The position numbers and the translations under genes were made by a program. This document shows, piece after piece, positions 2,664-32,000 of a stretch of 32,000 bases of DNA. The number at the start of each line of letters is the position of its first letter. The first letter of the stretch is position 1. This DNA is from Candidatus Iainarchaeum sp. (GTDB lineage: Archaea; Iainarchaeota; Iainarchaeia; Iainarchaeales; CSSED10-239), in contig JAQVTI010000001.1 in assembly GCA_028700115.1 (NCBI GenBank), forward strand, positions 161,139-193,138, read 5' to 3'. The notes under the pieces are model-generated. The model saw only the letters and a list, made by a program, of their open reading frames with translations, made no database searches and was not told the DNA's origin.

Positions 2664-2687
2664 AACTAATTTTATTTTTATAAAAAA
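2635..2687. repeat. Left copy of a 53-bp direct repeat containing a perfect 19-nt palindrome, atgctttttgaaaaagcat
   Basis: The same 53 nt (aaaaaactatgctttttgaaaaagcataaaactaattttatttttataaaaaa) occurs at 4144..4196, an offset of 1509 bp. The palindrome and downstream T-runs look like a terminator for ORF 2037..2663. Confidence 0.85.
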
Positions 2688-9152: not shown

Positions 9153-9524
9153 ATATTCACCTTTTTTTTTATATAAAGACTGAACCTGTGTAAATTAATT
9201 TTAAGTTAACAAAAAAACAAAGTTAGCTTATAAAACAGATTCGCCAAAGTAACGTTCATAGTTTACACTCATGTTACTGTAAGATATTAAAGAAAGAATA
9301 TATTTAAAAAGGTAAGTTTTTTGGAAAGAAAACAAAAGGTTTATAAAGAAATATGCCTCATAAAAATTGTTTTCCAAACCATAAAAAAACCTTATTTTAG
9401 ACATATAATAATAAATTATATTTGTTTATATATAATATATATTAAATATATAATATTTTAAAATATAATCTATTGAATAAAAAAAGAACAAAAAAGAACT
9501 AAAAAGAAAATATCTAAAAAAAAA

Positions 9525-13348: not shown

Positions 13349-13631
13349 AAAGAAAACTATTTCTTTCCTGTTATATGGTTTAACTCTTGTTTTAATTTAA
13401 AAATCATATCAGCATAACCATGAGTCATATCAACTATTGTAAATAAACTTTCTTGAAGATCAGAAATTGGAACATTTAGTTTCTCTGGTTTAATTACATC
13501 TATTGAAGTTACACCATAGTAATAAACTAATCTAAATAAAGACTGTAAATCCTTACAAGAAACTTCAGCTTCAATATATGTTGAAAACAAACCATCATGA
13601 ACTACAATTTCTGCAATCTTTGATTCATACA
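13349..13631. repeat. Left copy of a ~283-bp direct repeat (partner 15411..15693)
   Basis: Aligned by eye at an offset of 2062 bp, with about 8 mismatches and no indels. It covers the last ~90 codons plus ~8 nt of 3' flank of gene 15419..16072. Confidence 0.85.
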
Positions 13632-13665
13632 ATATAGATTTAACTAATTTTTTAGAAAATATCAA
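13357..13665 (-). pseudogene. Duplicated 3' fragment of gene 15419..16072 (C-terminal ~90 codons fused to an unrelated 11-codon N-terminus)
   Basis: The protein ESKIAEIVVHDGLFSTYIEAEVSCKDLQSLFRLVYYYGVTSIDVI.PEKLN.PISDLQESLFTIVDMTHGYADMIFKLKQELN.ITGKK is nearly identical to the C-terminus of the 217-aa protein. Confidence 0.6.
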
Positions 13666-13704: not shown

Positions 13705-14592
13705 TTATTTAATTAAAATACTTTTTTTAAGTAAATACAAATATTTATCTAAAACATCTTTTAAAATAAGATCAGATCTTAAAACCACTTCTAAAGAAGA
13801 TAAATTCACATTATTTAATTCTAATTTAGAAATATATTTAAAAAAATCATCTATTTTAAAAGCATTTTTATTATATTCTAAACTTTCATTTATTTTTAAT
13901 AAAACTAAATCTAAAAATAAAGGATCAATTTTAACTAAATCTTTACTTAAAATATACCCAATATCAAAAATATCTCTTAAAGCTAAAAAAGGTCTTGTAA
14001 CTAAAGCTCTATACTTCTCACTTAAATTTTCTCTAATGTCTATACATTCTATCTTAGAAACATCATCTAAAATAGCATCATTTAATTTATCATAAAATAA
14101 ATGATTTATAGTTTTTATTTTAGTATCTAAATAAAGTTTATGCCTAAAAGACACATCTATTTTTATTTGTTGTAAATCTTCAGATAATAAAGATTTATAT
14201 TTTGCATAAACAACTAAGTTAATAATTCTACCATTTTGAGTAATTATTTTCCAACCTTTCCCTAACTCATCACTTACTACTAACCCACATTTTAAGCATA
14301 ATTTATTTATTTCAGACCTTATTTTTTCAGATTTTAATTTTAAAGCTCTATTTGTTAAATTATTTAAATCCTCATTAAAAATAAAATCTAAATCTTCACT
14401 TAATCTATAAAATCCTAAATAACATTTATTTAAACAAGTACCACCTTTAAAAATAAGATTATCAATTTTATTATTAGAAAGTTCAATTAAAAATTTTGTT
14501 AAAAAATAATCTTTTTCTAATAATAGTGAATTAAATTTTTCTCTATTAGAAACTTCAAGTATTAAATTTTTTAAATTAACTTTATCTTCCAT
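13705..14592 (-). CDS. abiEii: AbiEii/AbiGii-family nucleotidyltransferase toxin (second copy, divergent)
   Basis: FKGGTCLNKCY ... LSEDLDF signature. It overlaps the upstream AbiEi-like gene by 22 nt. Confidence 0.8.
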   Translation of the reverse strand: MEDKVNLKNLILEVSNREKFNSLLLEKDYFLTKFLIELSNNKIDNLIFKGGTCLNKCYLGFYRLSEDLDFIFNEDLNNLTNRALKLKSEKIRSEINKLCLKCGLVVSDELGKGWKIITQNGRIINLVVYAKYKSLLSEDLQQIKIDVSFRHKLYLDTKIKTINHLFYDKLNDAILDDVSKIECIDIRENLSEKYRALVTRPFLALRDIFDIGYILSKDLVKIDPLFLDLVLLKINESLEYNKNAFKIDDFFKYISKLELNNVNLSSLEVVLRSDLILKDVLDKYLYLLKKSILIK

Positions 14593-15344
14593 TTAATATA
14601 CCTCAAATCTAAATTAGTATTTCTTATTTTTGTATAATATCTAAACTTATTTAATTTATTTAAATAATCATACAATTTTTCATTTTCTGTAATTATACCA
14701 ATTAATTTTAGTAATTTTATAGAATTTATTTTTTTTGCATATTTAATAAGTTTATTTTCATCAAATTTATCTTTATTTTTTTTAAAAATATAAATTAAAT
14801 GATCTAATGAATCAACATATTTAAAATAATTTAAAGAATCTATAATAGTTTTTTCGATATCAGAAAAAGGACATTTATTTTTAAACACACCAAATAAATT
14901 AGACTTATTTATTTTAATATAATGTATATTAAAATCTAATATTTTTTTTGTTAAATTATACTTAGTATTAAATACAAATAATTTATTAGGAATTTGAGTT
15001 ATAAAACCATATTTATTTAAAGCATTAATTAAACCAATATAATATTTGTTTGAATTTAAATAAAATTCATTAATTTCAAATTCAGAAACAACTGGCTTTC
15101 TATCTATAGAAGATACTGGAATATAAATATAATTATCTTTTTTAATAGAAATTAAATATTTCTGAAATAATAAATATTTAATAAATCTATTTGGATTGTT
15201 TGAATCTATATTTTTTATAATAATATCTAATAATTCATTTTTAGAAATAAAATGTATTTTTTTATATTCTAAAATAGAAATTAACTTCTTGGTCAAATTA
15301 TTAGAAAAGTTGGATTTATTAACCATATGTATTATTTTGACCAA
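14571..15344 (-). CDS. abiEi: AbiEi-like antitoxin (second copy)
   Basis: 257 aa, with the same size, position and overlap geometry as 5603..6391. The call is by context. Confidence 0.55.
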   Translation of the reverse strand: MVKIIHMVNKSNFSNNLTKKLISILEYKKIHFISKNELLDIIIKNIDSNNPNRFIKYLLFQKYLISIKKDNYIYIPVSSIDRKPVVSEFEINEFYLNSNKYYIGLINALNKYGFITQIPNKLFVFNTKYNLTKKILDFNIHYIKINKSNLFGVFKNKCPFSDIEKTIIDSLNYFKYVDSLDHLIYIFKKNKDKFDENKLIKYAKKINSIKLLKLIGIITENEKLYDYLNKLNKFRYYTKIRNTNLDLRYIKWKIKLI

Positions 15345-15410: not shown

Positions 15411-15693
15411 AAAGAAAACTATTTCTTTCCTGTTATGTAGTTTAACTCTTGTTTTAATTTAAAAATCATATCAGCATAACCATGAGTCATATCAACTATT
15501 GTAAATAAACTCTCTTGAAGATCAGAAATTGGTATGTTTAGTTTCTCTGGTCTAATTACATCTATTGAAGTTACACCATAGTAATAAACTAATCTAAATA
15601 AAGACTGTAAATCTTTACAAGAAACTTCAGCTTCAATATATGTTGAAAACAAACCATCATGAACTACAATTTCTGCAATCTTTGATTCATATA
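15411..15693. repeat. Right copy of the ~283-bp direct repeat
   Basis: See 13349..13631. Confidence 0.85.
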
Positions 15694-16072
15694 CTAAAAA
15701 CTTTTTATCAGATTTTAGTCTTTCTAAAATCTTATTCATTGCATCTTCTAAAGTTGCTTTATTATCTCCTTTAGACTCAATCATAATACTTACTTTAATT
15801 AAGTTTTTATCAGATTCAGAAATTGACTTTCTTGAATCTAACTTTTCTGCAATTTCTTTTGAAATAGAATACTTTGCAGGAAAGCCTTCTCTTTTTATAA
15901 GTTTTAATACAAGCATATTTTTTAGAGTTGCAGTTAAATCTTCATAACTTGCATCTTTAAATTCTTTTTTAAGTTCTTCATCAGTTTTTGGAGACTTATA
16001 AATAGATTTTGCAATTTCTTTTCTTAAATCAAGAATTCTTTTTTGTTTGTCTACATCTACATTTTCAGTCAT
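15419..16072 (-). CDS. Hypothetical protein with an N-terminal wHTH-like region (217 aa); intact parent of fragment 13357..13665
   Basis: Long ORF. TATLKNMLVLKLIKREGFPAKYSISKE looks like a winged-helix recognition region. I do not recognise the C-terminal ~100 aa. Confidence 0.5.
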   Translation of the reverse strand: MTENVDVDKQKRILDLRKEIAKSIYKSPKTDEELKKEFKDASYEDLTATLKNMLVLKLIKREGFPAKYSISKEIAEKLDSRKSISESDKNLIKVSIMIESKGDNKATLEDAMNKILERLKSDKKFLVYESKIAEIVVHDGLFSTYIEAEVSCKDLQSLFRLVYYYGVTSIDVIRPEKLNIPISDLQESLFTIVDMTHGYADMIFKLKQELNYITGKK

Positions 16073-16441: not shown

Positions 16442-17725
16442 ATGGATAATTATAATTATATACTTAAATCTGAAAGAAAAAAAGAAAAACTATTAGATGA
16501 AATTAAAAATTATAATGAAAGAAACATAGTTACAGAAATCAGAGAAGAAATTAAACTTTATAAAAATAAAAAAAATAAAAGAATATTCTTATTTTATGGA
16601 CTTAGAGGGATTGGAAAATCAACTGCATTATTACAAATTATAAAAGAAAATAAAGATGCAATGTATATTGATGGTACAGAAATATCTTATTATAATCTAG
16701 AACTTATAAAAGTTATAGAAGAATACAAAAAAATAAATAAATCAAATATATTAATTATAGATGAATTAAATGATATACCTAATTGGGGAAAAGCACTTAA
16801 AATATTATATGATTCTGAGAATTTAAAAATAATTGCAACAGGATCTTCGGCAATAAAAATATCACAAGAAATAAAAGAAATAATTAGAAGATCTAAAATA
16901 AAAAAACTGCAAGCTTTAAGTTTTAAAGAATTTTTAAAATTAAAATACAATATAGAATACAATATCACAAATGAAATTAAAGATATATTATTTTCAAAAA
17001 AAGAAGACGCATTTATAAAAATTAAAAATTTAAATTTAGATATACTTAAAAAAAATCAAGATATTGAAAAACATTTCAGAGAATACATATATGAAGGCAT
17101 ACCTTTAATGATTAACACAGGGGAAAAAATACAAGACATATCTCAAAATATAATTTATAAAATAATAGTAGATGATTTTAAAAATATTACAGGATTTAAT
17201 ATTAAAACTATAGATAAATCTAAAAAAATTATTAGAGCAATTGCAGAAGCAAAACCAGGACACACTTCTTTTAAAAATTTAAGTGATAACTTCGATATAT
17301 CCGCAACTACAATTTCTGAAATTATAAATGCATTTAAAATATCTGAATTAATTATAGAAACTTATGTTAATAAAAAATCAATGGCAAAATACAGAAAAGA
17401 ACCTAAAATTTTATTTAGCTCTTCAGCAATAAGATATGGATTATTATTAAATAATTTTGATGAAACAGATATTGGAACACTTAGAGAAGATGCTTTTGTT
17501 TCAAATATAATATATAGTGGATTAAATGTAAATTATATTGCAGAAAATAAAAAAACACCTGATTTTGAAATAAGTGATGACAAAAATAAAGTTATTGTAG
17601 AAATAGGTGGACAAAATAAAAAAACTAAACAGATCAAAAAAGGTTTTATAATTACAGAAAGTAATAAAATAGATATTATAAACAATGTGATATACATGCC
17701 TTTATACATGGTTTGTTTAATATAA
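16442..17725 (+). CDS. AAA+ ATPase of the archaeal ATPase / DUF4143 type (second copy)
   Basis: 427 aa. Walker A is GLRGIGKST, Walker B is LIIDELND. The C-terminus has TPDFEI ... VIVEIGG, analogous to 2678..4021. Confidence 0.75.
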   Translation: MDNYNYILKSERKKEKLLDEIKNYNERNIVTEIREEIKLYKNKKNKRIFLFYGLRGIGKSTALLQIIKENKDAMYIDGTEISYYNLELIKVIEEYKKINKSNILIIDELNDIPNWGKALKILYDSENLKIIATGSSAIKISQEIKEIIRRSKIKKLQALSFKEFLKLKYNIEYNITNEIKDILFSKKEDAFIKIKNLNLDILKKNQDIEKHFREYIYEGIPLMINTGEKIQDISQNIIYKIIVDDFKNITGFNIKTIDKSKKIIRAIAEAKPGHTSFKNLSDNFDISATTISEIINAFKISELIIETYVNKKSMAKYRKEPKILFSSSAIRYGLLLNNFDETDIGTLREDAFVSNIIYSGLNVNYIAENKKTPDFEISDDKNKVIVEIGGQNKKTKQIKKGFIITESNKIDIINNVIYMPLYMVCLI

Positions 17726-20820: not shown

Positions 20821-22080
20821 TTATTTTAGATCAGACTCAATCAATGTATAAGTTTCCCAAACTATAAATTCTATAAATTTATAGATAATTTTACAAAATC
20901 TAATATCCACACCATCTGGACAATGATTAATTTTTTGAGAAACATATCTACAGCCACCTCTACAAAGACCAATACCAATACAATTTTTACATTCTGGAAG
21001 AACATAAGATCCTATCCTTACCCAATTTTTAAATAAATCAATTTTATCCAAATCATAATTATTATATATATTTCCAGGAAAATAATTTAAATCTCCTAAA
21101 AAACTTTGACAAGGGCCTATATTCCCTGTAGGATCAACAACTATTTGACATTTATTACAAGGACAATGATGATAACCAATTTTTTGATTTATAAAACGAT
21201 ATAATAAAATTGAATAAAAATTATCAAAAACACCATGCTTTCTAGTAAAAGTTTTAAATAATTCAAAATATTTATTTAAAAGATAATCTAAATTAGTATA
21301 ATCAAAATTAATAACATCTAAAGGTAAAGGAAAATTAATAAATATCTTATTTAAGTTTTTAAAATTTAATAAATATTTTATTTGAGATTTAAAACAATCT
21401 ATATTTTGTAAATTCAAAGTAAATGAAAAAGTATAATTTACACCACACTTAATTAATAAATTTATATTTTTTAATAAAATATTATAATTTAAGCCAAGTC
21501 TATTTTTTTCAGAAACAAATTCATCTCCATCAACAGAAATTGATAAATTAACATTATATTTTTTAAAAAACAAAATCATGTCTTCATTTAATAAAATACC
21601 ATTAGTAATAATATTTATAGTACTCCCTTTATTTTTTAAATTAATTAATTTATTCCAATAAATAATACTTATTTTAACAACTGGCCAATTCAATAAAGGT
21701 TCTCCACCATATATATTTAAAATAAATCCTTTAGAATTAGATTTATTGGCATAATAATTTAAAAATAAATTAATGGCTTTTTTTGCAGTTGAAGTACTCA
21801 TAAAATAATTTTTAATATTAATGGAACTTTTTTGCAATCTATTTTTAATAAAACAATAGTTACAATTTAAATTACAATCTAAAGTTGGAATCAAATAAAA
21901 TATATGGGGTCTAAATTTATACTTATTTAATTTATCTTTACCTTCTTGAAATAAATTTTTATTAACATACAATTTATCATAAATTTGATTTTTATTTTTA
22001 CTATATGCTGTTTTTAAAGTAAACCTATTAAATCCAGCCCAAATTTTTCCTTTTTTAAAATAAAATATTTGATTATCCAT
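20821..22080 (-). CDS. Radical SAM / SPASM-domain protein (peptide-maturase type), 419 aa
   Basis: CNLNCNYCF (CX3CX2C). GGEPLL. The C-terminus HHCPCNKCQIVVDPTGNIGPC ... CKNCIGIGLCRGGC ... FC is a SPASM auxiliary-cluster pattern. Confidence 0.85.
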   Translation of the reverse strand: MDNQIFYFKKGKIWAGFNRFTLKTAYSKNKNQIYDKLYVNKNLFQEGKDKLNKYKFRPHIFYLIPTLDCNLNCNYCFIKNRLQKSSINIKNYFMSTSTAKKAINLFLNYYANKSNSKGFILNIYGGEPLLNWPVVKISIIYWNKLINLKNKGSTINIITNGILLNEDMILFFKKYNVNLSISVDGDEFVSEKNRLGLNYNILLKNINLLIKCGVNYTFSFTLNLQNIDCFKSQIKYLLNFKNLNKIFINFPLPLDVINFDYTNLDYLLNKYFELFKTFTRKHGVFDNFYSILLYRFINQKIGYHHCPCNKCQIVVDPTGNIGPCQSFLGDLNYFPGNIYNNYDLDKIDLFKNWVRIGSYVLPECKNCIGIGLCRGGCRYVSQKINHCPDGVDIRFCKIIYKFIEFIVWETYTLIESDLK

Positions 22081-23092
22081 CTAAATCACATTTAAAATAT
22101 TCAAATAATTTTTTGAAAAAAAGGCAATAATAGCTAGATGGATTTAGATTCCCATTTTGAACAAAAGAAGCATATAAACAACCACCTCTACAAATATAAT
22201 TTAAATCGCAATTTTTACAACTTTCGAAATTATTTACAGATCTATTTTTAAATAACTCCAAATTTTCATTAAATCCACTATAAATATCTCCAATTTTAAA
22301 AAAAGAATTATCAACCCCCACATGGCAAGAATAAATCTCTCCTTTAAAGTTAAAAACAAAACGATTTCCACAAGCAGTGCAATAAAAACAATTTTTTGAA
22401 ATAAAATTTTTTTTAAAATTATAAAGAGTATATTCAAAAATATTATTTTCAATTAATAAATTATACACCTTAACTAAATTAGAAGTATACATGTCTAAAA
22501 AATCAATATTATATAAATTATTTAAAGGTATTATATAATTAAAATATAATTTTTTAATTTTCAACCTTTTAAAAAAAGCGACTAATTTTTTTGGATAGTT
22601 TAAATTATGGTCACTCAAAGTACAACTTATCACATAATCTTTCTTTAATTTATTACATAAATTTATAGAATTAATTACTTTTGAAAAAACGGAATTATTA
22701 TTAAAATCAACTCTCATTTCATCATTCATAAATTTACTCCCATCTAAAGAAATTGCAATAAATACATTTAATTTTTTTAACAAATTTATTTTATATTCAT
22801 CTAATAAAAGTCCATTCGTAGTCAAAGAAATAGTATAATTTTTAAAAATAGATTTAATTTTAAAAATTATAAATAATAATTTTTCAAAAAAAAGTAAAGG
22901 CTCACCTCCGCATAAATCAAAATTAATATGTTTATTTTTAAATTCAACATCATTTTTAATAAAATTTAAAATTTCTAAAAGTTTAAAATTAGACATTTCA
23001 AATAATTGCACAGAAGAAACATAACAATATTTACATTTTAAATTACACTTATTAGAAATCATTAATTTAACATCAACTGAACTTAAATTCAT
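22073..23092 (-). CDS. Radical SAM / SPASM-domain protein, 339 aa
   Basis: CNLKCKYCY. GGEPLL. The C-terminus is CFYCTACGNRFVFNFKGEIYSC ... CKNCDLNYICRGGC ... YC. It overlaps the downstream gene by 8 nt. Confidence 0.85.
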   Translation of the reverse strand: MNLSSVDVKLMISNKCNLKCKYCYVSSVQLFEMSNFKLLEILNFIKNDVEFKNKHINFDLCGGEPLLFFEKLLFIIFKIKSIFKNYTISLTTNGLLLDEYKINLLKKLNVFIAISLDGSKFMNDEMRVDFNNNSVFSKVINSINLCNKLKKDYVISCTLSDHNLNYPKKLVAFFKRLKIKKLYFNYIIPLNNLYNIDFLDMYTSNLVKVYNLLIENNIFEYTLYNFKKNFISKNCFYCTACGNRFVFNFKGEIYSCHVGVDNSFFKIGDIYSGFNENLELFKNRSVNNFESCKNCDLNYICRGGCLYASFVQNGNLNPSSYYCLFFKKLFEYFKCDLDG

Positions 23093-23780
23093 TAAATTTC
23101 ACTATTTCATTATTTATTTTAAAAGGTAATAAATTTAACTCTTTTAAAATACAATATTCTACATCTTTTTTAAACCCACAACTAATTAAATATTTAGCTG
23201 CAGGCGATTCATATAATAAATCCACTAAAATTGATTTATATTGTATAACCAAATTAAGAGCATTTAAAGATAATTCATCCAATTTTTTAAAATTTAGGCT
23301 TGAAATAAATACACCTGCACAAATAAAATCATCCATGCAAATCACATCTTTATTTCCACCTATAATTAAATAAATGTTTCTATCACTAAAATATTTATTA
23401 AAAATATAACTTGCATATTTCAAATTAATTAATCCAATTAAAAAAATATTATCAGAATTAGATTTTAATAGAGCTTTAGATCCAAAACCAGAAATATAAT
23501 ACACATATTTACCACTTAAATCAGATAAATACTCTAATGGAGAATTACCTTTATCAAAAAAATTTATTTTTGAACAATTTTCTTCCCCACAAAATAAAAA
23601 ATTTTTTTCTTTAGGTATTTGCAAAATATCTAATTTAGAACTAAATAAATTTATTTTAGCAGCATTATTTTTAATACAATTACAAATAACTGATGAAGAT
23701 CGAAAAACATCTATTACAACAACTAAATCTAGTTTTCTAGAAGGTATATTATCTAAACCATAAATTAATTTAATATTCAT
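23073..23780 (-). CDS. ComB-family (2-phosphosulfolactate phosphatase-like) protein
   Basis: VVVIDVFRSSSVI near the N-terminus, then GNSPLEY, DDFICAGVFIS and a C-terminal KKDVEYC..LNLLP. These are collinear with ComB-family conserved blocks. It overlaps both neighbours (20 nt and 4 nt). Confidence 0.75.
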   Translation of the reverse strand: MNIKLIYGLDNIPSRKLDLVVVIDVFRSSSVICNCIKNNAAKINLFSSKLDILQIPKEKNFLFCGEENCSKINFFDKGNSPLEYLSDLSGKYVYYISGFGSKALLKSNSDNIFLIGLINLKYASYIFNKYFSDRNIYLIIGGNKDVICMDDFICAGVFISSLNFKKLDELSLNALNLVIQYKSILVDLLYESPAAKYLISCGFKKDVEYCILKELNLLPFKINNEIVKFNEFKFS

Positions 23781-25012
23781 ATATTTTTCTTCTTAAATTT
23801 TAAAATAACATAATCTAATAAATCAAATTCTTTAGAAAACATTTTAGAAATTAAAATAAAATTTGATTTATTTAAAATATTTATTAAAGATTCTGTATAG
23901 TCTACAGAAATATTAGATAAAATTAATACAAAAAATCCATCTTTTTTCAAAATTTTAAAACAATTTTTAAAGATACATAATAAATTTTCATCAAATGTTT
24001 TAGAATCCATAATATCTAAAGAATCAAAATTAAATTTATTTAAATAATTTAAATTAATCCAAGATAAATGCAAATATGAATTACAAGCATAAGATATATC
24101 TTTATAATAAGGAGGATCGCAAATTATACAATCAACTAAATTATTTTTTAAATTTAAATTTTTTGAATCATCTAAAATTAATTGCAAATGATTTAAATCT
24201 AAATTAAATTTATTAATTTCGCATTTTAAATCAATTGCTTTTTTTATTTTATTAAGAAAGCCAAACCATATATTAAAATTAACATACACCTCTGGAACTT
24301 TAAATGTATTAATTGTTTTCCAACGATTGTTATTTTTTAAAATATTTAATTTACTAGATTTACCTAGATTTGAACTAAAAATAAATTTAAAATAATTTTT
24401 AACATCTTCACATTTTATTTTATCAATAAATTCTAATAGGAGACACAATCCAATAAGATTTCGTTGTGAATACAAATCTTTAATAAAATTTACATTTGAA
24501 TTAAAATTTGCAGGAATTTTATTATTTGGAATATATTTATTATTGTAATTAAAATCGTCAAAACTATTTAAAATAAAATTAGGAGGTGTATTTTTTTTAA
24601 TTATAGAATTACATTTTGGACAAAAAAAAGAAGTAAAATTATTAATTACAAATGAATAAACTATTAAATTAGAACCACAACAATTACAACATTCTTTTGA
24701 TTTATATAATTTAAAAAAAATTGGTTTTAATAAATTTATATTCTTAAATTCTAAATTTAATTTATCAATAGTAATATTTTTTAATGTTTCAGTAACTATA
24801 AAATGACTTAATGGAGTAACATCTACCCCAATTACCTTTCTATTTAATATTAATGATTCAATAATAGTAGTTCCAGACCCCATAAATGGATCTAATATTA
24901 AACTATTTTCAGATGTATTTTCTAAAATCACCTTTTGAACAATTCCCCAATATTTACGTCCATTAAAAGGATGTAAGCTATATCTATTAGTTTCAATTAT
25001 ACTAATACCCAT
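23777..25012 (-). CDS. SAM-dependent N6/N4-type (DPPY) methyltransferase with an internal Zn ribbon
   Basis: An N-terminal DPFMGSGTT (motif I) is followed by VIGVDV. The Zn ribbon is CCNCCGS ... CPKCNS. ICDPPYY (motif IV) lies near the C-terminus. The architecture recalls archaeal Zn-ribbon adenine methylases (COG1743-like). Confidence 0.7.
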   Translation of the reverse strand: MGISIIETNRYSLHPFNGRKYWGIVQKVILENTSENSLILDPFMGSGTTIIESLILNRKVIGVDVTPLSHFIVTETLKNITIDKLNLEFKNINLLKPIFFKLYKSKECCNCCGSNLIVYSFVINNFTSFFCPKCNSIIKKNTPPNFILNSFDDFNYNNKYIPNNKIPANFNSNVNFIKDLYSQRNLIGLCLLLEFIDKIKCEDVKNYFKFIFSSNLGKSSKLNILKNNNRWKTINTFKVPEVYVNFNIWFGFLNKIKKAIDLKCEINKFNLDLNHLQLILDDSKNLNLKNNLVDCIICDPPYYKDISYACNSYLHLSWINLNYLNKFNFDSLDIMDSKTFDENLLCIFKNCFKILKKDGFFVLILSNISVDYTESLINILNKSNFILISKMFSKEFDLLDYVILKFKKKNI

Positions 25013-25014
25013 AT

Positions 25015-26175
25015 TTAATCACTATTAATTAATAAATAAACTTTATTTATATCAGAATATATTTCTAACATTATAAAATATATTAGTTCTTTCCAAAACA
25101 CACAATATTTTTTCCCAAAAAAATAAGATTTTGCAAAACAATTACAACTCAAAAAGTTTTTAAAAATACAACTATTACAAATTGAAATATTTTTAAAATA
25201 ATTAATTATAAAAATATTATTTAAAGAAAAATTATTAATATTAAATTTATTAATATTACCCATTTTAAATTTATTATATTCTAAAAAATAATCACAAGGA
25301 TAAATATCACCTAATACATTTACAGCAATTAATTTAGTGCCAGCACCACAATTTAACTTATTACAATTATCAGTATCTATATTAAATAATAATTTCTTTA
25401 ACAAATTAGAAAATGTTAATTCATATATTTTAAAACTATTAGTTAAATTATTATTTATAATTAGAAAAAATAATTTTTTATAAAAATTAAATAAATCTGA
25501 AGAATCATAACTAAATTTTTTAGAATCAATTAAATTTATTTTAAATAATTTTATTTTAAATTTTTTATAAAAATTAAATAAAATTTCTGGATTTTTAATA
25601 GATTTATAGTTTAAAACAGAAATAACAGTAGGTTCAAAATTTAATGAATGACATAATTTAATAGAATTAGAAACTTTAGAAAAATCAATTCTATAAACGT
25701 CATTATAAATTTTTGGACCATCAATAGAAATAGATAAATTCACATTATATTTTTTTAAAAATAAAATCATAGATCGATTTAATAAAGTTCCATTTGTTTG
25801 AATACTAAAAGTAATATTTTTTTTATTTTTAAATTTAAGAATAATAGATTTAATTTTATCAAATTCTAATAATGGTTCTCCACCATGAAATATAATTTGT
25901 AAAGATTTATTATATTGTGAAACCATTTTACAAAAAGAATTAATTACAGAATCTTTAATTAAAATATTATTTTTAGTAGAATAACAATACTTACAATTTA
26001 AATTACAATTTTTTGTGATTTTAAAAATAATCACAAAAGGAATTTCAAAGGAATTAATATCTAAAAAAGGCATTAATTTTAAATTATCAAGAGTATTAGA
26101 AACACCCCAACTACAAATAGATTTAAAAATAAAATTATTTTTATAAGAATCTATTTCTAAATAATTATTAATCAT
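25015..26175 (-). CDS. Radical SAM / SPASM-like protein, about 386 aa
   Basis: CNLNCKYCY. HGGEPLL. The C-terminus NCNKLNCGAGTKLIAVNVLGDIYPC ... CNSC ... CNC ... YC is a variant SPASM with CNC in place of GGC. The track ORF extends to a TTG at 26184. I prefer the ATG at 26175 because it sits 2 nt after the precursor stop. Confidence 0.8.
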   Translation of the reverse strand: MINNYLEIDSYKNNFIFKSICSWGVSNTLDNLKLMPFLDINSFEIPFVIIFKITKNCNLNCKYCYSTKNNILIKDSVINSFCKMVSQYNKSLQIIFHGGEPLLEFDKIKSIILKFKNKKNITFSIQTNGTLLNRSMILFLKKYNVNLSISIDGPKIYNDVYRIDFSKVSNSIKLCHSLNFEPTVISVLNYKSIKNPEILFNFYKKFKIKLFKINLIDSKKFSYDSSDLFNFYKKLFFLIINNNLTNSFKIYELTFSNLLKKLLFNIDTDNCNKLNCGAGTKLIAVNVLGDIYPCDYFLEYNKFKMGNINKFNINNFSLNNIFIINYFKNISICNSCIFKNFLSCNCFAKSYFFGKKYCVFWKELIYFIMLEIYSDINKVYLLINSD

Positions 26176-26177
26176 AA

Positions 26178-26303
26178 TTAACAATTATTTATAGGCCACC
26201 CAGTACCTAAACATTTTTGATTAATATCTAATTTATCAAATAATTTTTTAAGCACACTTTTATCTGGTACTTTCAAATTATTAGATTTATATTTATCCAA
26301 CAT
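26178..26303 (-). CDS. Candidate RiPP precursor peptide B (41 aa, not in ORF track)
   Basis: Translated codon by codon: MLDKYKSNNLKVPDKSVLKKLFDKLDINQKCLGTGWPINNC. SD-like GTGAGGT lies 4 nt before the ATG, with TTTATATATA further upstream. The stop is 2 nt before the radical SAM ATG. The putative core is a local GC-rich patch in very AT-rich DNA. Confidence 0.5.
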   Translation of the reverse strand: MLDKYKSNNLKVPDKSVLKKLFDKLDINQKCLGTGWPINNC

Positions 26304-26359
26304 AAAACCTCACATATATATAAATATTATAAGTAAAAATATTTATAAATAAATCTGTT

Positions 26360-26460
26360 TTAAAAATAAGCATAGCTAAATAAAAATACTATTAAAAAAG
26401 TAAATATAATATATATTATCTTTTTATTCATAAACCTTATTCTTCAGACATATTATTATA
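26360..26460 (-). pseudogene. Remnant of an M6-protease array junction: last ~8 codons of one copy, a 5-nt spacer, and a 23-codon signal-peptide stub of the next
   Basis: 26402..26458 matches 31314..31371 with about 2 mismatches. The stub translates MNKKIIYIIFTFLIVFLFSYAYF*, against MNKNIIYIIFIICFLFSFSYVYAY of the intact protease. The upstream stub reads NNMSEE*, against NNMSGE*. Confidence 0.6.
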
Positions 26461-26482
26461 TAAAATAGAAAATAATATGCAA

Positions 26483-26812
26483 TTACACAAATATATATGC
26501 AAAGTTATCTACAAAATCAATTTTAACATTAATATTACTAACCCTATAATTTTTTACAAAAGACGGTTTAAAAATCAAAGGAATATTTAGCTCTTGTGCA
26601 ATTATAGTAGCATGAGATAAAAGTCCACCATTACTTACAATTATTGCAAGTGGATTTAAAGAATTAATTTTAATAAAATGTACAGGCAACACATAATCAA
26701 TTACAAGAATTTCATTATATTTCAAATTATCTAAATTATTTATACGCCCACTTATAGATGAATTATTACTTTTAACCCAAACATCACCTTTATATACACA
26801 CTCATTTTTCAT
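26483..26812 (-). CDS. Stand-alone PEP-utilising-enzyme mobile (swivel phosphohistidine) domain protein
   Basis: 109 aa. ILVIDYVLPVHFIKINSLNPLAIIVSNGGLLSHATIIAQELNIPLIF matches the PEP_utilizers domain pattern (ILV...T.P......aaGivt..Gg..SHaaivARelgiP), including the catalytic His in SHA. Confidence 0.65.
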   Translation of the reverse strand: MKNECVYKGDVWVKSNNSSISGRINNLDNLKYNEILVIDYVLPVHFIKINSLNPLAIIVSNGGLLSHATIIAQELNIPLIFKPSFVKNYRVSNINVKIDFVDNFAYIFV

Positions 26813-27436
26813 TTAAATCACTTTAAAATCATTTAATTTTAAATAAACATAAATCAAACCTAACACAAAATCTTCTTCATTAGAAATATATTTTAAAAAA
26901 TCTACATCGGCAATATCTTTAGAGATATAATCATCAATTACTTTATTTGAATCAACATAATTTAAAAAAATATTTATAAAATTATATTTTTCATTTGGAT
27001 ATGATAATATAAAATTTTCAAATAAATATCTAAAATTATTATAGAAATAAAATATATTTATAAATTTAAAATTAACAGATTTATCTAAAAGTTTAGATTT
27101 ATATTTTTCAAATATTAATATTTGATAGGCCTCATAATCAATCAATAGATTATAAATAAAATTAACATCCTTAGATTTTAAATTATTAAATATTTTTTTT
27201 CTTATATTAATTAATTTAAATTTTAAAAAGTCAAATTCAAAATTATGATTTTCTAATAAGTTATATAAATATTCAGAAATATAAATTTCATGTTCTAAAT
27301 CATTTTTTTTATAATTTATGTGATTTAAATTTATATTTAATATATTACAAATTCTATTAAAAGAATTAACCATTATATTTATTGTAATTAAAGAATTTCT
27401 AACTAATAAAAATCCTCTTACTTTTATATATTTCAT
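26813..27436 (-). CDS. Hypothetical protein (207 aa), directly abutting the swivel-domain gene
   Basis: The ORF's last base is directly followed by the next gene's start (26813/26812). It is extremely N/I/K/F/Y-rich. I recognise no motif. Confidence 0.45.
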   Translation of the reverse strand: MKYIKVRGFLLVRNSLITINIMVNSFNRICNILNINLNHINYKKNDLEHEIYISEYLYNLLENHNFEFDFLKFKLINIRKKIFNNLKSKDVNFIYNLLIDYEAYQILIFEKYKSKLLDKSVNFKFINIFYFYNNFRYLFENFILSYPNEKYNFINIFLNYVDSNKVIDDYISKDIADVDFLKYISNEEDFVLGLIYVYLKLNDFKVI

Positions 27437-27446
27437 ATTTTCTTTT

Positions 27447-28754
27447 TCAAATTTTCTTTTTCAAATTTTCTTTTGCAATTTTTAAAATTAACTTACGAAT
27501 AATTTTTTTATATAATTTACAATTATCCAAATCTAATTGATAAATATTCAAATCTTTCCCTTTGGTTTTATTAACAATACATCCTCCGCCACATAAAGTT
27601 AAACCAATACAATTCCAACAATTTAAAATATTAAAAGTAGATCTTTTATTCCATGTATCCCAAATATAATCTTTAGTAAAATCATATTTCAAAGAAATAT
27701 CATTTAAATTTTTTTCAAAATAAGTTTTATGCTTCCAATCATAACCGTGACAGATACCAATTTTACCACTAGGTAGTACAACTAATTGATTGCCCATACC
27801 CGCACAATCTTTAACATAAAATCTTTTAAATACAATAGCTAAAAAACGCCTATAATAAATTCTATCTTCCAAAATATTTTTTTTAGTCAATATATTAATC
27901 ACATCAAACAAATCATCAATAAACTTATCATCAAAAACCATTTTTTGTTTGTGTAATAAATTAAAACTAAAAGACATTTTAGTATCTAAATTTTTTACAA
28001 AATGTTTAATATCCCTAATATTATCTTTAGTTAAAGTATAAGAAACAGACACGGGTATTTTTTTAGAAATTAATAAATCAAATCCTTTTTTAATTTCTAA
28101 ATACATATTTTTATTATTATGATTAACTCTATTAGAATTAGTTTTAGAACTAAATCCATCTATAGAGATTCCTACAGACACATTATATTTTTTAAATAAA
28201 TTTACATATTTTAAATCTAATTTAACCCCGTTAGTTACTATTATTATATTCGCATTTTTTTTGAAAATAGAATATATTTTTTCTAAAGTAAATTTAACTA
28301 AATTATAATCTAATAATGGTTCTCCACCATATAAAATAATTTTCTTTTTTAATTTACTTTTTTGATTTTTGTAAAGCTTCAAAGCTTTAATAATATGTTC
28401 TTTTTTAATTGAAATATTATCAAAATAATCTTTTACAAAACAATATTTACAATTTAAATTACATTTAGAATGCAACAGTAAATACATAACATGTATTCCA
28501 TAATCTTTTTGAGATAAGATTATTTTACTTTTTTTATAAAAATAATCTAAAAAATTAGTATTTTGATCAACTAAAAAGTCTAATTCAATTAAATCAACAT
28601 CAATATCTATAGAACTAGATAAAACTCCTTTTTTATAAATTTTTAAAAGTTTAGTTAATAAAATATAAATTTCTTGAGAAAATGGATTATATAAAACTGT
28701 ATATTTATCATCCAATTTGATTAATTTTACAAATGGATTTAAAATATATATCAT
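27447..28754 (-). CDS. Radical SAM / SPASM peptide maturase with an N-terminal PqqD-like RRE-type region
   Basis: CNLNCKYCF. GGEPLL. The C-terminus is CAGMGNQLVVLPSGKIGIC ... CWNCIGLTLCGGGC ... NC. The N-terminal VKLIKLDDKYTVLYNPFSQEIYILLTKLLKIYKKG looks like a PqqD/RRE leader-binding motif. The track ORF starts at a TTG at 28772. I prefer the ATG at 28754. Confidence 0.85.
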   Translation of the reverse strand: MIYILNPFVKLIKLDDKYTVLYNPFSQEIYILLTKLLKIYKKGVLSSSIDIDVDLIELDFLVDQNTNFLDYFYKKSKIILSQKDYGIHVMYLLLHSKCNLNCKYCFVKDYFDNISIKKEHIIKALKLYKNQKSKLKKKIILYGGEPLLDYNLVKFTLEKIYSIFKKNANIIIVTNGVKLDLKYVNLFKKYNVSVGISIDGFSSKTNSNRVNHNNKNMYLEIKKGFDLLISKKIPVSVSYTLTKDNIRDIKHFVKNLDTKMSFSFNLLHKQKMVFDDKFIDDLFDVINILTKKNILEDRIYYRRFLAIVFKRFYVKDCAGMGNQLVVLPSGKIGICHGYDWKHKTYFEKNLNDISLKYDFTKDYIWDTWNKRSTFNILNCWNCIGLTLCGGGCIVNKTKGKDLNIYQLDLDNCKLYKKIIRKLILKIAKENLKKKI

Positions 28755-28762
28755 ATAAATAC

Positions 28763-28906
28763 CTAATAACAACTGCTACAAGGACAATCAGAGCCACACC
28801 CACAATCACAATGACACACAGAACACATAATTTCATTTAATTTTTTTTCATTCATTTCTTTTTTATCTTGAAATGTATTAAAAATATCTCTTGAATCTAA
28901 TCTCAT
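28763..28906 (-). CDS. Candidate Cys-rich RiPP precursor peptide A (47 aa, not in ORF track)
   Basis: Translated codon by codon: MRLDSRDIFNTFQDKKEMNEKKLNEIMCSVCHCDCGCGSDCPCSSCY. There are 8 Cys in the last 20 residues. SD AGGTG lies 6 nt before the ATG, with a TTTATAT box further upstream. The stop is 8 nt before the radical SAM ATG. The core is a conspicuous GC-rich island (28765..28826). Confidence 0.6.
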   Translation of the reverse strand: MRLDSRDIFNTFQDKKEMNEKKLNEIMCSVCHCDCGCGSDCPCSSCY

Positions 28907-28953
28907 AGAAAACACCTAATTATATATAACTAAACAAATATAAATTTAACTAA

Positions 28954-28989
<36 letters not shown>

Positions 28990-28995
28990 TAAACC

Positions 28996-31347
28996 TTATT
29001 CTCCAGACATATTATTGTTGTTTGCAGAATAAACATGACATATATAAAGTAATAAGTCTTCTTGTGTTTCTTGATTGTAATCATCTGTAACTGTTAAACT
29101 AATATGTTTGTTTGTACAGATGTTCTCATAGTTTAAAGTTTGTGTTAAAAGAGATTTTGGATTTTGTAAAAAGTTTAAAGTGTTATTTGTTTGAGAAACA
29201 TTTGTTTTGTTTATAAAAATATTATTTAATATTTTATTTTGTGAGCTAAATGCTTGTGAAATGTTTTCAATAGTAAATTCACAATCATTACTTAAGATGT
29301 TTTGTGAATCATTATCTTTCCATTCACAACTATATTCACCTACATTGTTTTTTATAGTTGTTTCAAATGAAAGAGTATCTTCATATGTATGGTTAGATAA
29401 ATCTTTAGGAGAAACAATAGTTGCATCAAGTCCACTAAACTCTAAAGAGATAACATCTTCTGAAACTCTACCTTCTTCATCTTCACCTATTAATGTCATT
29501 GTATGCACACCAGGAAAAATACCTAGTTCTTGAGCAGTTGCAATAAAGTCACATTCATCACTTAAAGAAACAGGGTTATCTGTATCATTATCTAAAACCC
29601 AATCACAAGTTACTTGACCTGTTGGGTTTTCATGTTCTTCTATAAATAAAATATCTTCGTCTTGATCGTATTGTGTATTATTTATTGGAGAGTCTATTGT
29701 TACAATAAATTTTAATCTACTTTGTAGATACACAGGCATTGTGTGTTGTGAGACATCTAAGGCTTCAACTGCAACTTCTGTATCTACTAAACCGTTGTAA
29801 GTGTAAGAAGTATTATCGTAAGTTGCAGTACTATATAATCTTTGAACATTATCAAATCTACCAAAATGATCTTCAAATAAATCGTCTAATTCAATAGTAT
29901 ATAAAGATGTTTGAAAATAAGTTTCATTAGTTTGATCGTGTATCATATTTGCTTCAAAAACAATTCCTGGATGTGTATCGTTATCATCGTACATTATACC
30001 ATCTGGATCCCACATTATACTATTTGTTGGATATTGTTCTTCTATATATTCTTCATCTATATGATAAATTGTAACTCCGCCATGATAATTTGGTGTATTT
30101 GGATCTCTATACCAAAACATCCATTTATCTTGTGTACTTTCATCCATAAATCTATTTGCAACTAAAAAGTATTCTCGATCATACATTTTAGTTTCATCTT
30201 GTAAAACATATGCAATAGGAGTATCATCTAAAGTTGGCAGATTATAAAAACCAGCATCTTGTGAACCGATAATGGTTGGATTAATCCAACCAAAAAAAGT
30301 CTTTGACCAAACATCAAAATTTATTGGAAAATTAGGATTTCCATCAGTCTGAGACATCATAGATAAATTCCAAAGTCCCATTCCTAAATGTAAACCATTA
30401 TGATGTTCATATAAATCAGGAACTCCTAAAATATGTCCAAATTCATGAACTAAAGTATTTAATTCAAATCTACAATCTGTAGGATGACCATAATTTGAAT
30501 TATGACCTTCACAAACAAAATCATCAAGTTCAGAAGCAACAACATACATATTTCCTAAAAAAGTATCATCTCTATTATAACTAGAACCATTCATAATTCT
30601 AGTATGGTCTTTAAATTGATTTGTTGCTTCTCCAGATCTTATTAAAATAAGACCTTCCATTCTACCGTCATTATCAGCATCATATTGACTAAAATCAACT
30701 TCTGGATCAACAAGATCTAAAAGATCCATAAACATTTGAAATTGTGTTGAGTTATTTGTTTTGTAATATTCAAAAGTTTCTGGAAGTTCATACCAATCTT
30801 CATAAACATCAAATGTTAAATGTAAATTTCCATAAGACTCGTGTAGATAATAATCAGAAACACTAATTCCATTTTCATCAAGATAATTTGGATCATTATA
30901 AGCAGCATTAATATCTTCAAAAGTTATATCTTCTTTATGAAGTTGATCTGAAAACTCAACCATAAAAACAGGAATTGTAAAATTTCCTTCTGTAGGACAA
31001 GTTCCCCAGATATTTTCTACAGAAGTAAAATTATCTTTTGGTGAGATTGGAATTAAGTTTTTTGTATATTCTTTTACATCTGCTTTACTACAAATACCAG
31101 GAGGATAATAAACATCTCCAAAAGAAATACCACCACAATCATTTTGATTTAAATCAAAATTTGGATTGATTTGAGAAATGTTTGAAATATTATTATTTGC
31201 ACTAATTGTTATATTTGGATTTATATTAGTAGAAGGTTTATTTTGAGAAACATAGTTTAAAACATTTGTTGAAGAATAAGCATAAACATAGCTAAATGAA
31301 AATAAAAAACAAATGATAAATATAATATATATTATATTTTTATTCAT
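28996..31347 (-). CDS. Secreted M6 (immune inhibitor A-like) family zinc metalloprotease with C-terminal Ig/PKD-like repeats
   Basis: 783 aa. The signal peptide is MNKNIIYIIFIICFLFSFSYVYAYS. LVHEFGHILGVPDLYEH matches the M6 HExxHxxGxPDxY signature. There are two related C-terminal about 90-aa Cys-pair modules (C.W...D....LS..C.F). Confidence 0.7.
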   Translation of the reverse strand: MNKNIIYIIFIICFLFSFSYVYAYSSTNVLNYVSQNKPSTNINPNITISANNNISNISQINPNFDLNQNDCGGISFGDVYYPPGICSKADVKEYTKNLIPISPKDNFTSVENIWGTCPTEGNFTIPVFMVEFSDQLHKEDITFEDINAAYNDPNYLDENGISVSDYYLHESYGNLHLTFDVYEDWYELPETFEYYKTNNSTQFQMFMDLLDLVDPEVDFSQYDADNDGRMEGLILIRSGEATNQFKDHTRIMNGSSYNRDDTFLGNMYVVASELDDFVCEGHNSNYGHPTDCRFELNTLVHEFGHILGVPDLYEHHNGLHLGMGLWNLSMMSQTDGNPNFPINFDVWSKTFFGWINPTIIGSQDAGFYNLPTLDDTPIAYVLQDETKMYDREYFLVANRFMDESTQDKWMFWYRDPNTPNYHGGVTIYHIDEEYIEEQYPTNSIMWDPDGIMYDDNDTHPGIVFEANMIHDQTNETYFQTSLYTIELDDLFEDHFGRFDNVQRLYSTATYDNTSYTYNGLVDTEVAVEALDVSQHTMPVYLQSRLKFIVTIDSPINNTQYDQDEDILFIEEHENPTGQVTCDWVLDNDTDNPVSLSDECDFIATAQELGIFPGVHTMTLIGEDEEGRVSEDVISLEFSGLDATIVSPKDLSNHTYEDTLSFETTIKNNVGEYSCEWKDNDSQNILSNDCEFTIENISQAFSSQNKILNNIFINKTNVSQTNNTLNFLQNPKSLLTQTLNYENICTNKHISLTVTDDYNQETQEDLLLYICHVYSANNNNMSGE

Positions 31348-31352
31348 AAACC

Positions 31353-32000
31353 TTATTCTCCAGACATATTATTATTGTTTGCAGTATATTCATGACAAAT
31401 ATACAATAATAAATCTTTTTGTGTTTCTTGATTATAATCATCTATAACTGTTAAAGATATATTCTTATAATTACAGATGTTCTCATAGTTTAAAGTTTGT
31501 GTTAAAAGAGATTTTGGATTTTGTAAAAAGTTTAAAGTATTATTTGTTTGTCCAAGATTTAATTCATTTACAAAAATATTTTGTAAAACTTTATTTTGTG
31601 AGCTAAATGCTTGTGAAAGATTATTAAGTTCAAAATCACAATCATTACTTAAAATATTTTGGGAATCTTGATCTTTCCATTCACAACTATATTCACCTAC
31701 GTTGTTTTTTATAGTTGTTTCAAATAAAAGAGTATCTTCATATGTATGGTTAGATAGATTTTTAGGAGAAACAATAGTTGCGTCAAGTCCACTAAACTCT
31801 AAAGAGATAACATCTTCTGAAACTCTACCTTCTTCGTCTTCACCTATTAATGTCATTGTATGCACACCAGGATAAATACCTAGTTCTTGAGCAGTTGCAA
31901 TAAAGTCACATTCATCACTTAAAGAAACAGGGTTATCTGTATCATTATCTAAAACCCAATCACAAGTTACTTGACCTGTTGGGTTTTCATGTTCTTCTAT
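31353..32000 (-). CDS. 3' part of a second tandem M6-like metalloprotease paralog (partial, continues beyond the window)
   Basis: The frame stays open from 31353 to the window edge. The track shows only the part from an internal Met at 31865. The translation IEEHENPTGQVTCDWVLDNDTDNPVSLSDECDFIATAQELGIYPGVHTMTLIGEDEEGRV... is near-identical to residues about 568-783 of the 783-aa protein. Confidence 0.75.
   Translation of the reverse strand: MEEHENPTGQVTCDWVLDNDTDNPVSLSDECDFIATAQELGIYPGVHTMTLIGEDEEGRVSEDVISLEFSGLDATIVSPKNLSNHTYEDTLLFETTIKNNVGEYSCEWKDQDSQNILSNDCDFELNNLSQAFSSQNKVLQNIFVNELNLGQTNNTLNFLQNPKSLLTQTLNYENICNYKNISLTVIDDYNQETQKDLLLYICHEYTANNNNMSGE

Follow-up and report, generated by a model that had tools for sequence, protein, structure and literature searches.

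We analysed a window of 32,000 nucleotides (nt) from Candidatus Iainarchaeum sp. (GCA_028700115.1, contig JAQVTI010000001.1, positions 161,139 to 193,138; all coordinates below count from the first letter of the window unless a related locus is named), in which a short cysteine-rich open reading frame (ORF) lies directly upstream of a gene for a radical S-adenosylmethionine (rSAM) enzyme with a SPASM domain. Here we consider the two as a candidate precursor and maturase of a peptide synthesized ribosomally and then modified post-translationally (RiPP). On the minus strand, the ORF (28763..28906) starts with the ATG at 28906, stops with the TAG at 28763–28765 and encodes 47 amino acids, MRLDSRDIFNTFQDKKEMNEKKLNEIMCSVCHCDCGCGSDCPCSSCY, with eight cysteines within the final 20 residues and a C-terminal tyrosine. 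A Shine–Dalgarno-like AGGTG (28913..28917, minus strand) is located 6 nt 5' of the ATG, and 8 nt separate the stop codon from the ATG, at 28754, of the 435-residue rSAM/SPASM gene (27447..28754, minus strand; Pfam Radical_SAM and Fer4_12). The initial annotation, made from the sequence alone, had described these elements and their spacing correctly. It had also called the ORF unannotated, which was true of its own gene track but not of GenBank, where the ORF is recorded as "hypothetical protein PHR26_01825" of the Candidatus Iainarchaeum metagenome-assembled genome GCA_028691725.1 (DPANN phylum Iainarchaeota). Between the stop codon of a neighbouring protease gene and the promoter region of the peptide lies a microsatellite, (AAT)n, with some 10 units (28955–28988). 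Just upstream of it, 82 nt from the peptide ATG, the window and the copy of the contig in GenBank (L001) have different bases at one position.

The encoded peptide is divided into a leader and a core of different composition. Residues 1–27 (28826..28906, minus strand) form the leader region, with 17% G+C and an N-terminal motif, M-[RI]-[LV]-x-[SK]-[RN]-[DE]-[IF]-x3-F, that is defined by alignment with the homologues described below and in the window peptide includes D7, I8 and F12. Residues 28–47 (28766..28825, minus strand) form the core, CSVCHCDCGCGSDCPCSSCY, in which all eight cysteines are encoded by TGT and the G+C content rises to 43% over 60 nt, against a mean of 18.4% for the 8-kb cluster. 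The contrast noted in the initial annotation is real, although the core is not quite the only G+C-rich patch in about 8 kb: one other 60-nt spot in 20821–28995 equals it, at 27744–27746, in the SPASM "GICHG" motif of the enzyme. By codon position, the G+C content of the window core is 0.35/0.75/0.20. Across the cores of five peptide genes, position 2 reaches 69–83% G+C while position 3 stays at 8–22%, the genomic level; the excess is confined to positions 1 and 2 in all five, and Cys is nearly always encoded by TGT, the most A+T-rich of its codons. The G+C patch therefore stems from selection on the residues encoded in the Cys frame, as had been proposed from the window alone. When the window was block-shuffled 200 times, eight Cys in 20 residues were never reached in an open segment (maximum six), and the only denser real segment of the window (9067–9156, 11 of 20 residues) runs off-frame over the Ala-rich N-terminal region of an S-layer-like gene (6597–9152).

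Because the core DNA is rich in TGT, a second frame is open across it as well and would encode a Val-rich peptide (28708..28836). Automatic gene callers selected this frame at two related loci (1143–1259 in L011 and 9879–10004 in L008), which lends some weight to the explanation that the Cys-rich ORF is not a real product and that the region is instead non-coding, a structured RNA, or the gene for a Val-rich hydrophobic peptide in the overlapping frame. The Val-rich frame, however, is without a ribosome-binding site or a conserved leader and overlaps the start of the window rSAM gene by 47 nt; in all five genes it is the Cys frame alone that has these two features, as well as a genome-like G+C content at position 3. 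As for a structured RNA, the precursor region has no match in Rfam and its fold is weaker than that of shuffled sequences (z = +1.7). This explanation is highly improbable, and to judge from these sequence features the ORF is a genuine, translated gene for a Cys-packed RiPP precursor.

A search of 5.8 billion proteins identified orthologues of the rSAM enzyme in five further lineages, at 46–53% identity, with the next relatives at 32% or less. In each of these five lineages a co-oriented small Cys-rich ORF lies upstream of the rSAM gene and ends 12–43 nt before its start, so that a homologous small ORF is present beside every orthologous rSAM gene; the initial annotation had named the lack of such ORFs as a refuting result, and the comparison supports its reading. 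The encoded peptides are (V)ILDKNEILTAFKNDENKKKNIHSAFDCTCNCVCDCSCGCGGDCACGSCY in L011, MIVTKNDINDCFKYNFKIAPKDKKLNEKLNADGWICNQCSCSTCACSCVCSCK in L003–L006, MIVSKNDIEQCFKYNQKITPKYKNKMQEKITADGWICNSCSSCSSCACSCSDCSPGICSCSSCNSE in L008/L009/L028 and MIVNKNDFEASFDLKQKIVPKYKLKTFQELSDSGMPVCNQCTSASCGSDI in L007/L014. Of two upstream peptides, the contig ends leave just the C-terminus, which before the stop codon reads SDCDCYY in one (L012/L013) and SCSSCNSE in the other. The L011 peptide is 42% identical to that of the window (tblastn, 1e-9), and the two have the ending ...CGCG[SG]DC[PA]C[SG]SCY in common. In the peptide alignment, which draws on six rSAM lineages with the window included, the N-terminal leader motif is kept and the core cysteines are retained, while the length of the core and its spacers vary. 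A ribosome-binding site precedes all five visible starts at a distance of 3–6 nt, as AGGTG or, in the relatives, as GGTGAT or GGTGGT at 3–5 nt. Copies of the peptide gene from the same lineage, recovered from three to four independent samples, are identical, with neither frame-disrupting variants nor informative variation. Metagenome runs such as SRR22315503 and SRR8925747 carry these contigs. The contig of L007/L014 (GCA_964398395.1, CAYNMU010000050.1; 25% G+C), which carries the archaeal-clade rSAM orthologue and the peptide, bears the name "uncultured Eubacteriales bacterium", which may reflect a binning or taxonomy error, or horizontal transfer.

Homologues of the peptide were recovered solely through the gene neighbourhoods of the rSAM enzyme. 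When the peptide itself was the query, a word-indexed search of the 5.8 billion proteins and a phmmer search that read 1.84 billion representatives exhaustively returned nothing beyond the peptide and an irrelevant 642-residue repeat protein. We attribute these failures to the gene callers' choice of the Val-rich frame, as a result of which the Cys-rich precursors are systematically absent from protein databases. The viral contigs that we searched contained no close relative of the rSAM enzyme. More distant rSAM relatives likewise have short Cys-rich ORFs upstream, with cores such as ...KCGTCACKCACRYNN..., ...CCYTSCTRCG and ...RCACGCSCWN. The family itself is small, previously undescribed, and found with DPANN-type archaeal genomes.

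The AlphaFold model of the window rSAM enzyme, built from a 19-sequence alignment of relatives, is confident (predicted local distance difference test score (pLDDT) 89, predicted template-modelling score (pTM) 0.88). Its N-terminal domain (residues 1–81, about 28512–28754, minus strand) comprises four beta-strands followed by helices, precedes the rSAM barrel and is modelled with a pLDDT above 85. Using Foldseek against the PDB, we found as top matches TigE (8VPO), CteB (5WGG/5WHY; the thioether synthase of SCIFF), anSME, SuiB and ChlB; the alignments with TigE and CteB are full-length and include their N-terminal RiPP-recognition domains. The model and these matches support the assignment of the N-terminus, already made in the initial annotation, as a domain resembling a RiPP recognition element (RRE). 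The CxxxCxxC motif of the rSAM core (C98/C102/C105, 28440–28463, minus strand) and seven SPASM cysteines (C317, C335, C379, C382, C388, C392 and C412, 27519–27806, minus strand) are invariant in the 19-sequence alignment and line up with the cysteines of CteB. A profile of the 19 members has CteB as its best PDB match (3e-61), with all SPASM cysteines aligned; a narrow six-member profile and the single sequence both have TigE. In CteB, a substrate Cys reportedly binds at an open site of the first auxiliary cluster. By analogy, the seven-Cys SPASM domain of the window enzyme is consistent with an open auxiliary-cluster arrangement of this kind, without proving it.

The RRE-like peptide-binding domain of the neighbouring enzyme also bears on whether the 47-residue peptide is modified at all. 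The initial annotation had offered, as an alternative, a metallothionein-like or cluster-binding peptide. In such a case the peptide would be an unmodified metal- or Fe–S-binding mini-protein that merely sits beside the rSAM gene or serves the enzyme as a chaperone or regulator. The CxCxC density of the core is metallothionein-like, and module 1, as we term the group of four genes that the peptide heads, is without a dedicated transporter or protease. Yet none of the five peptides matches a Pfam metallothionein family at E ≤ 10, a metallothionein has no use for a polar leader of 27–37 residues with a motif conserved at its N-terminus, and the pairing of peptide and enzyme is kept across 46–53% identity and in the more distant relatives. 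We regard the metallothionein-like alternative as quite improbable, and the 47-residue peptide and the adjoining rSAM enzyme as very probably a precursor–maturase pair.

Module 1 continues downstream of the rSAM gene with two genes on the same strand, encoding proteins of 207 residues (26813..27436, minus strand) and 109 residues (26483..26812, minus strand). With gaps of 8, 10 and 0 nt from the peptide gene onwards, the four genes are likely to be co-transcribed. The 207-residue protein has no family match in Pfam or NCBIfam and corresponds to the N-terminal half of a larger partner protein of the relatives (33% identity to residues 4–200 of that of L011). In the relatives, the rSAM stop codon overlaps the start of this partner gene, which encodes 369–406 residues and whose C-terminal half carries the kinase-like signature HGDLHLKNII..IDLE. 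The kinase-like domain follows the rSAM gene in all four relatives with fully visible downstream DNA, and in L009/L010 a second ORF after the rSAM gene is cut by the contig end. Family matches of the kinase half are weak and below the cut-offs (APH, 21 bits against 23.2; TCAD9, 33 bits against 40; also RIO1 and Bud32). Compared with the partner gene of L011 (2575–3795 in that locus), the window gene lacks the kinase half cleanly, and the next gene abuts it; the 207-residue form may result from decay or from the loss of a domain, or it may be a minimal form that still functions. A protein search with the alignment of the partner yielded two known sequences only, its candidates being swamped by low-complexity words, and with no more than these two sequences to align, the AlphaFold model of the N-terminal domain is unusable (pLDDT 38).

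The 109-residue protein is a stand-alone PEP-utilizers mobile domain, or phosphohistidine swivel domain (PF00391, 8.3e-09). Its candidate phospho-His is His67, in NGGLLSHATIIAQE, and the motif is retained; the protein is 43% identical to one of 112 residues that is encoded at the corresponding position in L011. Three of the lineages also have a GNAT acetyltransferase, on either side of the cluster. The kinase-like partner, the swivel protein and GNAT are all absent from relatives in the Candidate Phyla Radiation (CPR) of bacteria.

These accessory proteins raise the question of whether cross-linking proceeds by another route, in a hybrid pathway whose kinase-like and swivel proteins would phosphorylate Ser or Thr of the core, with elimination to dehydro-residues that take up neighbouring Cys as lanthionines, alongside cross-links made by the rSAM enzyme. 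The recurrence of the kinase-like domain after the rSAM gene, the conservation of the swivel protein in the window and L011, and cores rich in alternating Cys and Ser would all suit such a pathway, and the partner protein gives very weak matches to LxmK and LanKC (E 0.14–0.21). These matches are not significant, however, and no homologue of a lyase or cyclase was detected with the precursor loci. The N-terminal domain of the partner is also without a recognisable fold, and the window has no kinase half, yet its peptide and rSAM genes are intact. A lanthionine-forming hybrid is thus improbable.

We favour the reading that the window peptide belongs to a new family of ranthipeptide- or sactipeptide-like RiPPs, whose cysteines would be cross-linked by thioethers; we assign this reading, which argues by analogy with known enzymes, a probability of about 0.6. 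The leader motif would dock on the RRE-like domain of the rSAM enzyme, as its architecture suggests. By homology with characterised enzymes, SAM would then be cleaved at the CxxxCxxC cluster, and the resulting 5'-deoxyadenosyl radical would strip a spacer residue of a hydrogen at one of its carbons. The thioether, a sactionine or ranthionine, could then be closed by the thiolate of a core Cys that the CteB-like seven-Cys SPASM domain presents at its first auxiliary cluster, and repetition of this cross-linking, up to about eight times, would give a compact poly-thioether peptide. In the relatives, the partner with its kinase-like half, the swivel protein and GNAT may carry out or control one more step, in which phosphoryl groups might be transferred to the Ser-rich core.

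Thioether chemistry specifically, again by analogy, we place at even odds or slightly better. The enzyme could be acting on the peptide as its true substrate with a different chemistry, such as TigE-like C–C cross-linking or cyclopropanation, anSME-like oxidation of Cys or Ser to formylglycine, or epimerisation, leaving the cysteines free for disulfides or metal. TigE is the top match both in Foldseek and in the single-sequence search of the PDB, anSME is also near, and the cut-offs of the curated thioether families are not reached. On the other hand, what the cores conserve is the cysteines themselves, between freely varying spacers, Cys-rich precursors are the substrates in all of the nearest curated families (FibroRumin, PapB, SCIFF and CefB), and CteB moves ahead of TigE with the broader family profile. 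The substrates of TigE-type enzymes, moreover, are Val-rich repeats, unlike the cores described here. We consider a chemistry other than thioether formation possible but unlikely.

Several observations weigh against a thioether-cross-linked RiPP family as such. The enzyme reaches the curated cut-off of no family model, and its proposed chemistry rests on distant homology, at 17–22% identity to solved enzymes, the best structural match among which, TigE, makes C–C bonds (cyclopropylglycine) and not thioethers. The core is without a regular donor–acceptor motif such as Cys-X3-Asp, and module 1 encodes neither a transporter nor a dedicated leader peptidase. The family comprises just six rSAM clusters among the 5.8 billion proteins. 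Finally, the partner protein of the window lacks the kinase-like half kept in the relatives, so that the locus could be partly decayed.

A more far-reaching proposal is that the peptide, the rSAM/SPASM enzyme and the kinase-like and swivel proteins, acting as a phosphoryl-transfer pair, together make an undescribed product, either a peptide that is both radical-cross-linked and phosphorylated or dehydrated, or a poly-thiolate metallophore or cofactor derived from the peptide, which genome-reduced DPANN archaea would use in contact with their hosts. We consider this distinctly unlikely; if true, it would constitute a new RiPP class as opposed to one more ranthipeptide. Phosphotransfer partners are in any case unreported for ranthipeptides: a literature search on ranthipeptides together with a kinase or phosphotransferase found no described system with such partners. 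To our knowledge, few rSAM substrates have a Cys pattern as dense as that of the window core. Genome-reduced symbionts that retain about 8 kb with four rSAM maturase genes presumably need the products, which might be used in host interaction or metal handling. The wrong frame is often chosen by gene callers on TGT-rich cores, as in L011 and L008, and precursors of this kind are consequently under-counted. We expect the system to be of moderate interest to specialists in RiPPs and in DPANN archaea.

On both sides, module 1 is flanked by copies of the junction at which one tandem protease gene meets the next: the end of the first gene (..NNMSGE before the stop codon) is followed by GGTTT and the start of the second (MNK.IIYII..). 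At its downstream edge (26361..26459, repeat family D2) lies a junction remnant, with the end ..NNMSEE and the truncated start MNKKIIYIILFTFLIVFLFSYAYF, each followed by a stop codon; this segment is 86% identical to 31277–31375. The upstream edge (28920..29018) consists of a protease gene end, GGTTT, ATGAAT and (AAT)n, which form a partial copy of the junction; the junction lies at 28985–29018, a short way upstream of the peptide. Given these flanking copies, module 1 appears to have taken the place of one protease gene body in a tandem array, in the manner of a cassette insertion. The adjacent gene (28996..31347, minus strand) encodes a 783-residue protein with a hydrophobic N-terminus, a HEFGH zinc-metalloprotease motif and a weak Peptidase_M6 match, and a partial tandem copy of it follows at 31353–31865 (minus strand; repeat family D1, 300 nt at 86% identity). 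The protease is probably secreted; a role as leader peptidase is speculative. A protease homologue is also found near module 2 (described next) in the related locus L039, and its position near the modules might be plain synteny.

The largest intergenic gap, of 179 nt, separates module 1 from a second group of genes. This module 2 is headed by a second candidate precursor of 41 residues, MLDKYKSNNLKVPDKSVLKKLFDKLDINQKCLGTGWPINNC (26178..26303, minus strand), with its own GAGGT ribosome-binding site and without a homologue among the loci that we fetched. Five enzyme genes on the minus strand follow (20821..26175; Pfam and NCBIfam assignments), encoding rSAM2/SPASM (25015–26175), an N6_N4_Mtase-like protein (23777–25012), a protein resembling ComB-family 2-phosphosulfolactate phosphatase (23073–23780), rSAM3 (22073–23092) and rSAM4 (20821–22080). 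The five recur in the same order and at 47–60% identity in L039 (1–5068; metagenome contig Ga0222667_1000022, low G+C), of which the fetched stretch begins within rSAM2. Module 2 is absent from the loci of the module-1 relatives and recurs in L039, and we treat the two modules as separate units. That module 2 acts on the 47-residue peptide was considered and rejected as a default, since the module-1 relatives do without it and it has a small ORF and ribosome-binding site of its own. Module 2 is probably a separate, RiPP-like unit, and we know of no obvious counterpart to its combination of three rSAM enzymes, a methylase and a phosphatase of ComB type.

Elsewhere in the window, two genes for AbiEii-type nucleotidyltransferase toxins of type IV toxin–antitoxin systems are found on the minus strand (4876–6391 and 13705–15344), each preceded by a start-overlapping gene of about 260 residues without a family match that is a candidate antitoxin. 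The second pair is flanked by ORFs of 102 residues (13357–13665) and 217 residues (15419–16072) that have a near-identical C-terminal stretch of about 85 residues in common, which suggests an insertion with partial gene duplication. Two paralogous genes for AAA_14/DUF4143 ATPases (2678–4021, minus strand; 16442–17725, plus strand) belong to a family that also occurs after the rSAM gene in L012.

To place the system among known families, we compared the window rSAM enzyme with NCBIfam and Pfam models, using their curated cut-offs in bits. Among the NCBIfam models it scores highest on TIGR04136, the FibroRumin system radical SAM peptide maturase, with 155.8 bits where the cut-off is 400, followed by PapB (NF047865) at 111.5 bits against 340; the scores for SCIFF (TIGR03974) and CcpM/CLI_3235 (TIGR04068) are 76.4 bits against 425 and 50 bits against 500. 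The TIGR04136 score rises from 172–181 bits in three other archaeal orthologues (P0003, P0005 and P0006) to 256 and 279 bits in metagenomic relatives (L032 and L033) and 389 bits in a CPR-bacterial relative (L016). The precursor model of the same system, TIGR04135, weakly matches one CPR peptide (13.3 bits against a cut-off of 45) and none of the five archaeal peptides at E ≤ 10. As in the window, FibroRumin precursors are short, have a Cys-rich C-terminus and are encoded immediately 5' of an rSAM/SPASM maturase, and the cores of the CPR intermediates, such as KCGTCACKCACRYNN, resemble archaeal cores such as CSTCACSCVCSCK. The window-type loci differ in being archaeal, in having another leader and a kinase-like partner, and in that the maturase scores below its cut-off and the archaeal precursors do not match the precursor model. 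The gradient of scores and the below-cut-off matches therefore point to a divergent archaeal sister of the FibroRumin type, outside every curated family, rather than to a member of one. The archaeal enzyme is thereby linked through CPR-bacterial intermediates to an uncharacterised family: we know of no study of FibroRumin chemistry, and a literature search on "FibroRumin" and "TIGR04136" found nothing.

The initial annotation had likened the peptide to SCIFF/ranthipeptide and CcpM-type precursors. The reading of the ORF as a leader-and-core precursor for the adjoining rSAM/SPASM enzyme is supported, but by the curated hidden Markov models the system belongs to neither SCIFF nor CcpM. With the SCIFF pair CteA–CteB (PDB: 5WGG/5WHY) it has in common a precursor of about 45 residues, a polar leader, a multi-Cys C-terminus and an enzyme whose three parts, the RRE, the rSAM core and the SPASM domain with seven Cys, each align with CteB. 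SCIFF loci, like module 1, encode no transporter. The window-type cores, however, contain 8–10 Cys in a strict CxC pattern, whereas SCIFF has six spaced Cys, and SCIFF is clostridial with a highly conserved core, in contrast to the archaeal loci with their hypervariable core. In the PapA–PapB (freyrasin) system, the enzyme forms Cys-to-Asp thioethers in substrates with a Cys-X3-Asp motif. Asp residues also recur in the window and L011 cores, but the spacings from Cys to the next Asp in CSVCHCDCGCGSDCPCSSCY are X0, X2 and X4, never X3, and the match to the NF047865 profile, which has 330 positions, does not begin before residue 89 of the window enzyme and so leaves the N-terminal RRE-like domain uncovered. 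CcpM/CLI_3235, CefB (NF038107), TIGR04463 and the CXXX-repeat family TIGR04115 follow the same logic of a Cys-rich precursor with an rSAM/SPASM maturase; their Cys periodicity is every fifth residue or CXXX, as opposed to CxC in the window. Three of these models match the window enzyme at 50–75 bits against cut-offs of 500–600, and TIGR04115 is not among its 25 best NCBIfam matches.

TigE, which has Val-containing repeat substrates and forms C–C bonds, is the known enzyme closest to the window rSAM by structure and by single sequence, and the two have the three-domain architecture in common. Their identity is 22%, and the conserved substrate feature in the present family is Cys. The structure 8VPO is that of a radical SAM cyclopropylglycine synthase (PMC10878394). 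Among RiPP kinases (for example LxmK of class V lanthipeptides), as in RIO and Bud32, the likeness lies in the HxDLHxxN...ID catalytic signature of the relatives' partner protein; the similarity to RiPP kinase routes is at the level of the motif only, with no lyase and with the kinase half missing at the window locus. The window peptide has the generic features of a RiPP precursor, being short, co-oriented with and adjoining a maturase with an RRE-like domain, and composed of a conserved leader and a core with conserved cysteines and variable spacers. Ranthipeptide and sactipeptide clusters have been predicted in many Archaea, DPANN among them, according to a survey of RiPPs from this domain, but none has been characterised (PMC12144867). 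For archaeal rSAM RiPPs, which surveys so far only predict, the window offers a compact case of one 47-residue peptide and one enzyme. On the evidence of its sequence, the system appears to be an undescribed branch of a well-known kind of modified peptide.

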